Positions 15,667 to 16,957 of a stretch of DNA of 31,193 bases are shown piece after piece; within the stretch, counting starts at the first letter, position 1; each line of letters opens with the position of its first letter. Under the pieces are notes generated by a model that was not told the DNA's origin, did no database searches, and saw nothing but the letters and a program-made list of their open reading frames with translations. The translations under genes were made by a program, and so were the position numbers. This DNA comes from an uncultured Clostridia bacterium. GTDB lineage: Bacteria > Bacillota > Clostridia > Christensenellales > Borkfalkiaceae. The stretch is from contig CAZRAS010000001.1 of the NCBI GenBank assembly GCA_964598045.1, positions 1 to 31,193 of the forward strand. The letters run 5' to 3'.

Positions 15667-16353
15667 TTATGATTCGGATTGTCTGTTTTTCATACGTTTC
15701 CAACTGAGATACCCGTAAAGATCATTCAACAAAAACACGACGAAACAAACGACCACGGAAAGATAACGAATCTCGGAAACGCTCGCCAACGTCCATAACA
15801 CGATCAAAACGACGTCATTCGCAGCATACGCCAACGCATACGTCGGAGAACGGCGAAACGTGAGATAGACGGCAAGAAAACTCGTAGTCACCGAGACGGT
15901 ACTCGGAAAAATATTCGCCGTATCGAACGCTTTCAAAATGAAATAGAACACCGCCGTCACCACGGCTGTCAGAAGATACATCGCCACGCGTTCCCCCTTG
16001 CCGATCGTGTTCACTTTCACCTCCGCCTTATTCCCTTGATAGGGATTTTTCAGCCAAGATACCAACGCAAAAATCGCCATCGGCATCGTCATTCCGAGAT
16101 AGGTAAACATCTCCCCGTAATAGGCAAACGTGTAAGAAATAATGCCGTACAACAAACTAAACGCAATCATGAGCGCCTGTCCGATCGGATTGCCTTTTGC
16201 ATTAAAAATGAGCGACGTCACCCCGACGAGCGAGGCAATCAGCGTTATGTAACTTTCACGATCGAAAAGACAAAAAGACAAAACAATCGCAAGAACAGAT
16301 ATCGACCATAAAATCAGCTCCTGTTTCGAGAAATAGGCAAATAATTTTTTCAT
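15667..16353 (-). CDS. pnuC: PnuC-family (nicotinamide riboside/vitamin) transporter
   Basis: Seven to eight TM helices, LIFNAKGNPIGQ, YYGEMFTY, YAANDVVLIVLW, LYGYLSW. Start ATG 16353 after GGAAG. Confidence 0.85.
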   Translation of the reverse strand: MKKLFAYFSKQELILWSISVLAIVLSFCLFDRESYITLIASLVGVTSLIFNAKGNPIGQALMIAFSLLYGIISYTFAYYGEMFTYLGMTMPMAIFALVSWLKNPYQGNKAEVKVNTIGKGERVAMYLLTAVVTAVFYFILKAFDTANIFPSTVSVTTSFLAVYLTFRRSPTYALAYAANDVVLIVLWTLASVSEIRYLSVVVCFVVFLLNDLYGYLSWKRMKNRQSES

Positions 16354-16363
16354 AGAAACTTCC

Positions 16364-16460
16364 AAAAAAATAAGCATCCGCATACACATCTTCCAAGACC
16401 TAACGATGTGTAAACGAATGCAAACGCATTATGCTACCCGGTGGCAACCATTCATTTTAT
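16364..16460 (-). promoter_or_regulatory. Attenuator/riboswitch-like leader of pnuC
   Basis: About 16-bp terminator (16421-16374) plus U-tract (16373-16364) right before the SD; competing 9-bp helix 16457-49/16420-12 enclosing hairpin GUUGCC-ACCG-GGUAGC. Confidence 0.65.
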
Positions 16461-16464
16461 AAGC

Positions 16465-16493
16465 AGTATAGCATAACAACTCGAAAATGTCAA
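16465..16493 (-). promoter_or_regulatory. sigma-A promoter of pnuC
   Basis: TTGACA-N17-TATACT with extended TG. Confidence 0.85.
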
Positions 16494-16618
16494 ACGATTT
16501 GCAATGCAAAACAGGCGAATTTCCAAACACAAAGATACACGGCGATGTCTTTATACGTCGGAAGATCGAGGAAGACATGACGTCCTCCTCCGAATTTCTT
16601 CCGTTGCCTTATAAGCCT

Positions 16619-16711: not shown

Positions 16712-16914
16712 TGGTATTCTTCAAAAAACTCTAAAAATCGTCTTTTTTCCCTCTTAAAAACATTTTTCATCCTGTCCTTCTCTAAAAACGACGAAGACGG
16801 GCATACCATGTCCGCGTTGAATCATTTTTTTATAAAAATGAAGGCGCCATGTACGAGTTCATTTTTTTCTTTCTCTCTTTATTCGCAAAAATCGAACTTT
16901 TTAATCCGCTAAGC

Positions 16915-16957
16915 AAAAAAAGAAGAGTTTCGTATAACGCGAAAGCTCTCCTCTTTT
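16915..16957 (-). terminator. Terminator of the ABC exporter operon
   Basis: Imperfect AGAG-TTTCG / CGAAA-CTCT stem followed by a U-run on the minus strand. Confidence 0.6.

Follow-up and report, generated by a model that had tools for sequence, protein, structure and literature searches.

The leader of ~95 nt between a promoter and a PnuC-like gene (16458-16364, minus strand) is, with high probability, a guanidine-IV riboswitch that would control the gene via transcription attenuation. The class is already known. It was published in 2020 under the names GGAM-1 (Lenkeit et al. 2020 NAR, PMC7736828) and mepA motif (Salvail et al. 2020, bioRxiv 10.1101/2020.10.21.349134), and PnuC-like genes are among its three main published partners. 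A sequence-only reading of the same DNA had proposed a transcription attenuator of the riboswitch type, which the conserved and covarying leader bears out. Its idea of an unrecognised, new aptamer did not hold, as the leader is typical of guanidine-IV.

The window analysed is a stretch of 31,193 nt of contig CAZRAS010000001.1 (GCA_964598045.1), numbered along the forward strand; leader and gene are read on the minus strand. The promoter, the leader of ~110 nt, the long terminator and the hairpin that the sequence-only reading had listed were all recovered on the minus strand at the coordinates it had assigned to them. The features of the locus, in the direction of transcription, are as follows.

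16465..16493, minus strand: sigma-70-type promoter, with -35 TTGACA at 16493-16488 and extended -10 TGcTATACT at 16473-16465
16449..16457, minus strand: AAAUGAAUG, proposed upstream antiterminator strand, complementary to 16420-16412 and outside the conserved motif
16433..16448, minus strand: P1 hairpin GUUGCC-ACCG-GGUAGC, with the loop ACCG at 16442-16439
16417..16430, minus strand: linker hairpin AAUGC-GUUU-GCAUU; the 3' arm coincides with the first five nucleotides of the terminator left arm
16374..16421, minus strand: intrinsic terminator hairpin, with left arm 16421-16405, 14-nt loop GUUAGGUCUUGGAA at 16404-16391 and right arm 16390-16374
16364..16373, minus strand: terminator U-tract UUAUUUUUUU, which directly abuts the Shine-Dalgarno sequence
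16351..16363, minus strand: Shine-Dalgarno sequence GGAAG (16363-16359) and start codon ATG (16353-16351), the latter set by alignment with relatives
15667..16353, minus strand: PnuC-like transporter gene, 228 aa (PF04973, E = 8e-34; TIGR01528, 72 bits)

The promoter scored 11 of 12 matches, with a spacer of 17 nt and a TG upstream of the -10 element TATACT (16470-16465), suggesting a transcription start near 16458. In the terminator, GCAUUCGU..UACACAUC (16421-16405) pairs with GAUGUGUA..GCGGAUGC (16390-16374) over 17 bp. The folding energy of the 118-nt leader was -34.6 kcal/mol (z = -3.76), and none of 200 shuffled sequences was as stable. A further hairpin, GAGAGCUUUCG...CGAAACUCUUC followed by U7, was seen by eye at ~16905-16950 on the minus strand of the window and is absent from the pattern-scan list. 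It sits just past the end of the ABC-transporter gene (16995) and is probably the terminator of the ABC-transporter operon; pnuC would then be transcribed as a unit of its own.

Protein relatives of the PnuC-like transporter were collected as 80 loci with 68-80% identity, mostly from Clostridia metagenome-assembled genomes and a few labelled Negativicutes or Erysipelotrichia. The same leader was located directly upstream of the PnuC-like gene in ~76 of these 80 loci. An alignment of 73 distinct PnuC leaders revealed two near-invariant loops, that of the first hairpin (ACCG) and that of the terminator (GUUAGGUCUUnGAA). The P1 loop ACCG was identical in all 73 sequences, and the letters C, U, AGGUC and GAAG of the terminator loop were likewise invariant, with one free position (UCUU-n-GAAG). 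Stem cells were paired to 97.7%, a value matched by none of 500 shuffles and far above that of slid registers. Changes on both sides of a pair were observed in 16 of the 22 stem pairs (4/6 in P1, 12/16 in the terminator).

A blastn search with the leader against 40 relatives gave only three weak matches, so that a covariance model was needed; it was built from PnuC leaders only. This model found exactly one copy in the window's own genome. An even sample of 151 genomes from the class contained the motif in 36 cases, and 8 of 41 genomes of the same genus had it, the window's genome included; a phylum-level sample contributed only five additional members. The leader is a real, widely conserved structured RNA, and such an RNA with invariant loops carries the signature of a ligand sensor.

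The two loops can also pair with each other: A16442, C16441 and C16440 of the P1 loop are complementary to G16400, G16399 and U16398 of the terminator loop. Covariation of this pseudoknot was counted over 44 distinct matches of the covariance model outside the seed. The A-U pair occurred as A-U in 34 sequences, as G-C in five and as G.U in three, with a mismatch in two, and both C-G pairs were invariant. In five loci, mostly MatE-linked (L107, L110, L111, L119 and L122), the P1 loop reads GCCG and the terminator loop AGGCC, a compensatory exchange of A-U for G-C. As judged from these sequence changes, the covariation-supported pseudoknot of the published guanidine-IV model is reproduced here. 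The real sensor comprises two loops, ACCG in P1 and the conserved one of the terminator. In the anatomy proposed earlier, the small hairpin at 16448-16433 was correctly recognised, and the conserved terminator loop, which is part of the sensor, had gone unflagged.

These loops bear on another explanation of the locus, a plain intrinsic terminator without sensing which might, for example, insulate pnuC from the upstream ABC-transporter operon. Hairpin and U-run have a standard appearance and the upstream genes lie on the same strand, but a strong promoter is situated between the upstream operon and the hairpin. The reading is contradicted by the loop conservation, as a plain terminator has no need for a 14-nt loop and a P1 loop that stay near-invariant across many families, nor for a loop-loop pair that covaries. 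We regard it as highly improbable.

The leader had looked new because Rfam gave no match. A cmscan of the whole window against Rfam 15 at gathering scores returned no matches, and the E-value mode applied to 16300-16560 (261 nt) returned only noise at E up to 10 (snoZ159, mir-4703, frnS, sno_ncR3). The MatE-linked and other loci likewise gave no Rfam match at E up to 0.1. The motif is dominated by a terminator, the kind of feature that discovery pipelines tend to ignore (Salvail et al., 10.1101/2020.10.21.349134). The absence of Rfam matches also agrees with the sequence-only reading in its exclusion of the TPP, FMN, NAD+-II and purine classes.

Besides PnuC leaders, the covariance model matched the leaders of nine MatE genes, three PNPOx/NimA-like genes and a few others. 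This gene set pointed to the guanidine-IV literature, in which GGAM-1 is associated with PnuC- and MATE-family transporters in addition to SugE (PMC7736828). The genes downstream of GGAM-1 comprise SugE with 31%, PnuC-like with 25.2% and MATE with 22.6%, followed by NimA (PMC7736828, Supplementary Table S4). A SugE-linked copy was not encountered among the sampled genomes, those of the phylum-level sample included. The mepA motif was described as P1, a linker of variable length and a terminator with a 'remarkably well-conserved' loop, joined by loop-loop pairing (10.1101/2020.10.21.349134).

The class was assigned from the text of the papers and the construct sequences, the window being compared by eye with 95 Lla and 95 Csp as given in the supplement text. 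The validated guanidine-binding L. lactis construct 95 Lla consists of ACUCC-ACCG-GGAGU, UAA, the hairpin AUCGU-AUGA-ACGAU, whose 3' arm begins the terminator, and the terminator loop AGUAGGUCUGAGAA (PMC7736828 supplement). Its architecture of P1, small hairpin and terminator is that of the window, in which AU joins P1 to the linker hairpin. The P1 loop ACCG is identical in both, and the core UAGGUCUnnGAA of the terminator loop is common to them. Guanidine binding of 95 Lla is abolished by the exchanges G66C, U67A and G72C; G62 is the fourth mutated position (PMC7736828). G66, U67 and G72 correspond to G16399, U16398 and G16393 of the window, all three of which are invariant in the alignment of PnuC leaders. 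Three of the four binding-critical positions are thus present in the window, and the equivalent of G62 is ambiguous, since UAGGUC is preceded by AG in the L. lactis construct but by GU in the window. P1 loop, terminator loop, pseudoknot pairing and gene association, four features of the guanidine-IV class, were all found in the window.

This identity weighs against a new riboswitch class or a protein-dependent antiterminator responding to a vitamin such as nicotinamide riboside or NMN. In favour of a vitamin, the gene passes the TIGR01528 cut-off ('nicotinamide riboside transporter PnuC'), and the lack of an Rfam family could be read in the same direction; sequence and structure, however, are those of a published class with a validated ligand. 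The same RNA is also found before genes without any connection to NAD (MatE efflux, PNPOx-like), and the transporter is devoid of both tryptophans of the Pnu ligand motif. A vitamin-sensing leader of a new kind is accordingly very unlikely.

A closer relative is Gd4v, a look-alike of guanidine-IV with a different, as yet unassigned ligand; drawing a line between the two is reported to be difficult (Lenkeit et al. 2022, PMC9788692). Gd4v and the window leader have the same overall fold, in which the ACCG loop of P1 forms a pseudoknot with the loop of a terminator hairpin; Gd4v is over-represented in gut bacteria and also occurs before MATE genes (PMC9788692). Two strict discriminators have been given: a loop position, D1, occupied by G throughout guanidine-IV but only by other bases in Gd4v, and D2, an extra hairpin within the terminator loop of Gd4v (PMC9788692). 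The Gd4v constructs read GUAGGUA-(hairpin)-UUACAAG and CAGGUAA-(hairpin)-UGAAAG, with C or A at the position of G72 (PMC9788692). Gd4v thus shows GGUA, an inner hairpin and a non-G at D1, whereas the window has GGUC, a 14-nt loop without inner hairpin and G16393. GGUC, the missing inner hairpin and the G at the G72-equivalent position place the window on the guanidine-IV side. Gd4v is furthermore linked to transaminase genes and never to SugE, and PnuC was not reported among its main partners (PMC9788692). An identity with Gd4v was rejected, as the window displays none of its discriminating features.

The PnuC-linked leaders might still form a specificity variant of the guanidine-IV fold and sense another small cation or a guanidine derivative, which would be the true substrate of the transporter. 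The fold has already given rise to Gd4v, and the substrate site of the PnuC-like transporter is remodelled. PnuC is essentially never linked to guanidine-I, -II and -III (0.09%, 0.02% and 0%, respectively; PMC7736828 supplement), so that the tie between PnuC and guanidine comes from the guanidine-IV class alone. RNAs tested for guanidine were those before sugE/emrE (L. lactis, R. timonensis) and before mepA (C. botulinum), plus a representative from L. brevis; in the literature we found no report of a PnuC-linked representative tested biochemically for guanidine binding. Against a specificity variant, both loops of the window are identical to those of the MatE-linked members found with the covariance model, and at positions shown to matter they agree with the validated sugE-linked member from L. 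lactis. At both discriminators the window has the guanidine-IV state (G at D1, no D2 hairpin), and PnuC leaders were counted as GGAM-1 by Lenkeit et al. (PMC7736828). A change in specificity appears improbable, though less so than a plain terminator or a vitamin sensor.

Several further matches of the covariance model deserve mention. In two weak ones (L124:264-357 and L125:408-501, 43-45 bits) the loops are changed (AGCCG; GUCAGGUUUCAUGAG), and the only ORFs downstream are small and lack a Pfam match; these could be another variant of the fold or decayed copies. One genome (G118) carries two guanidine-IV copies 2.9 kb apart (L116:1048-1142 and L116:3938-4032), one before a 176-aa ORF without Pfam match and the other before a PnuC-like gene. 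Two matches each were also found in genomes G104, G167, G078 and G126. Candidate switches with partly degenerate loops were located before a NUDIX gene (L123:313-399) and 112 nt upstream of a pseudouridine synthase gene (L109:1501-1592).

Both discovery papers, a 2024 single-molecule study and a 2025 review describe guanidine-IV as a transcriptional ON switch, as measured on other members than the window leader. In this literature, guanidine favours the pseudoknot between the two loops before the terminator has fully formed and thereby prevents terminator completion. Guanidine binding and ON-switch behaviour of the window leader are carried over from those measurements and would take the following form. 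In the absence of guanidine, the full 17-bp terminator (16421-16374) and the U-run would form, and transcription would stop just before the ribosome-binding site. In its presence, the pseudoknot between the P1 loop (ACCG) and GGU of the terminator loop would form, creating or completing the guanidinium pocket. ACC and GGU would be presented by P1 (16448-16433) and by the upper terminator stem (16412-16405 with 16390-16383), and the outer terminator stem (16421-16414 with 16381-16374) would have to stay open for read-through.

The segment AUAAUGCGUUUG, previously read as single-stranded, in fact contains a conserved and covarying linker hairpin. A hairpin of at least 5 bp (5-7 bp) was present in 70 of 72 leaders versus 20% of shuffled linkers. 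Pair 1 was CG in 52, UA in 3 and UG in 12 leaders, and pair 5 was AU in 49, GC in 13 and GU in 5. A few members, e.g. L101, L104 and L115, are devoid of the hairpin, which argues for an accessory role. It would sequester the first 5 nt of the terminator left arm, probably assisting antitermination as a small conventional antiterminator helix. The published guanidine-IV models show a single-stranded linker, whereas the PnuC-linked subset has this hairpin overlapping the terminator left arm; the validated 95 Lla construct likewise possesses a small hairpin of the linker type. Neither the linker hairpin nor the change in the transporter binding site was found described in the literature descriptions of the class.

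An upstream antiterminator had been proposed instead, formed by 9-bp pairing of AAAUGAAUG (16457-16449) with CAUUCGUUU (16420-16412). This pairing is real, includes one G.U pair and constitutes the minimum-energy fold of 3'-truncated transcripts of the window; it requires a transcript start at or before 16457. It is not conserved: at least 8 bp were reached in only 2 of 76 loci (9 bp in the window, 8 bp in one relative), and it was rejected as a conserved feature on these grounds. The remaining loci have 3-7 bp, no more than we would expect from A/U-rich sequence, an expectation stated without a shuffle control. The upstream pairing is at most a lineage-specific extra.

The protein encoded downstream belongs to the same fold family (PF04973) as the nicotinamide riboside transporter PnuC of N. 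mucosa (PDB 4QTN) and PnuT (PMC5749112), and aligns to 4QTN over its full length (E = 2.4e-15). Given its score above the TIGR01528 cut-off, the gene would probably be named 'nicotinamide riboside transporter PnuC' automatically, as this model is used by NCBI. The Pnu ligand-binding motif WxxW(x)3D/N is located in TM6 (PMC5749112). At the corresponding site the window protein reads YALAYAAND (residues 172-180), aligned to WALWIVVN of 4QTN, and the motif F/Y-A-x-A-Y-A-x-N-D is shared by ~73 of 77 relatives (L005-L084). The loss of both tryptophans across the riboswitch-linked clade fits a non-vitamin substrate. Together with the guanidine-type regulation and the missing link to guanidine-I, -II and -III, it argues against applying the name 'nicotinamide riboside transporter' to this clade.

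The most likely function of the PnuC-like protein is guanidine-related transport rather than import of nicotinamide riboside; the substrate itself we infer. The sequence-only reading was right in expecting that the ligand of the leader would inform on the substrate of the transporter. A role of PnuC-like proteins in guanidine transport, with export as a guess, was a speculation of Lenkeit et al. 2020 (PMC7736828), and no later paper testing guanidine transport by PnuC-like proteins was found in the literature. The Pnu-family members characterised to date are facilitated-diffusion transporters (PMC5749112), and how such a protein could export a cation is difficult to envisage. In the window's own genome, which is 68% complete, neither an SMR/SugE gene (PF00893) nor a guanidine-I riboswitch (RF00442) was found; within this incomplete genome, the PnuC-like gene might be the sole transporter responsive to guanidine.

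A more specific proposal can be made, for which we see the chances as evenly balanced: the clade would be a guanidinium transporter with a remodelled substrate site (WxxW to F/YxxA, Asn/Asp kept), and the linker hairpin would add an antiterminator helix to the 'taut linker' model. If true, the Pnu/SWEET-like family would gain in guanidinium its first substrate that is not a vitamin, raising the question of how a family of facilitated-diffusion transporters moves a cation out of the cell. For annotation, we suggest guanidine-IV riboswitch for the leader and guanidine-IV-regulated PnuC-like transporter, substrate unproven, for the gene.

Among known systems, guanidine-IV comprises a P1 with ACCG loop, a variable linker, a Rho-independent terminator with the loop UAGGUCUnnGAAG and an ACC-GGU pseudoknot; all of these are present in the window, and no difference of kind was noted. 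The NAD+-II riboswitch (pnuC motif) is likewise found upstream of a PnuC-family gene, in Streptococcus, but has an unrelated fold, in which two stems flank an internal loop and the ribosome-binding site takes part in a pseudoknot, and acts as a translational OFF switch binding nicotinamide moieties (PMC7749635, PMC8632094). It was rejected as a candidate for the window leader on account of its different fold and the lack of an Rfam match, both at gathering scores and with E up to 10. A similar contrast applies to the transporters. The Pnu vitamin transporters carry WxxW(x)3D/N and are repressed by a vitamin, whereas the riboswitch-linked clade carries Y/FxxA(x)3N-D, with both tryptophans gone and the Asn kept, and is predicted, by analogy with the guanidine-IV members measured elsewhere, to be switched on by guanidine.
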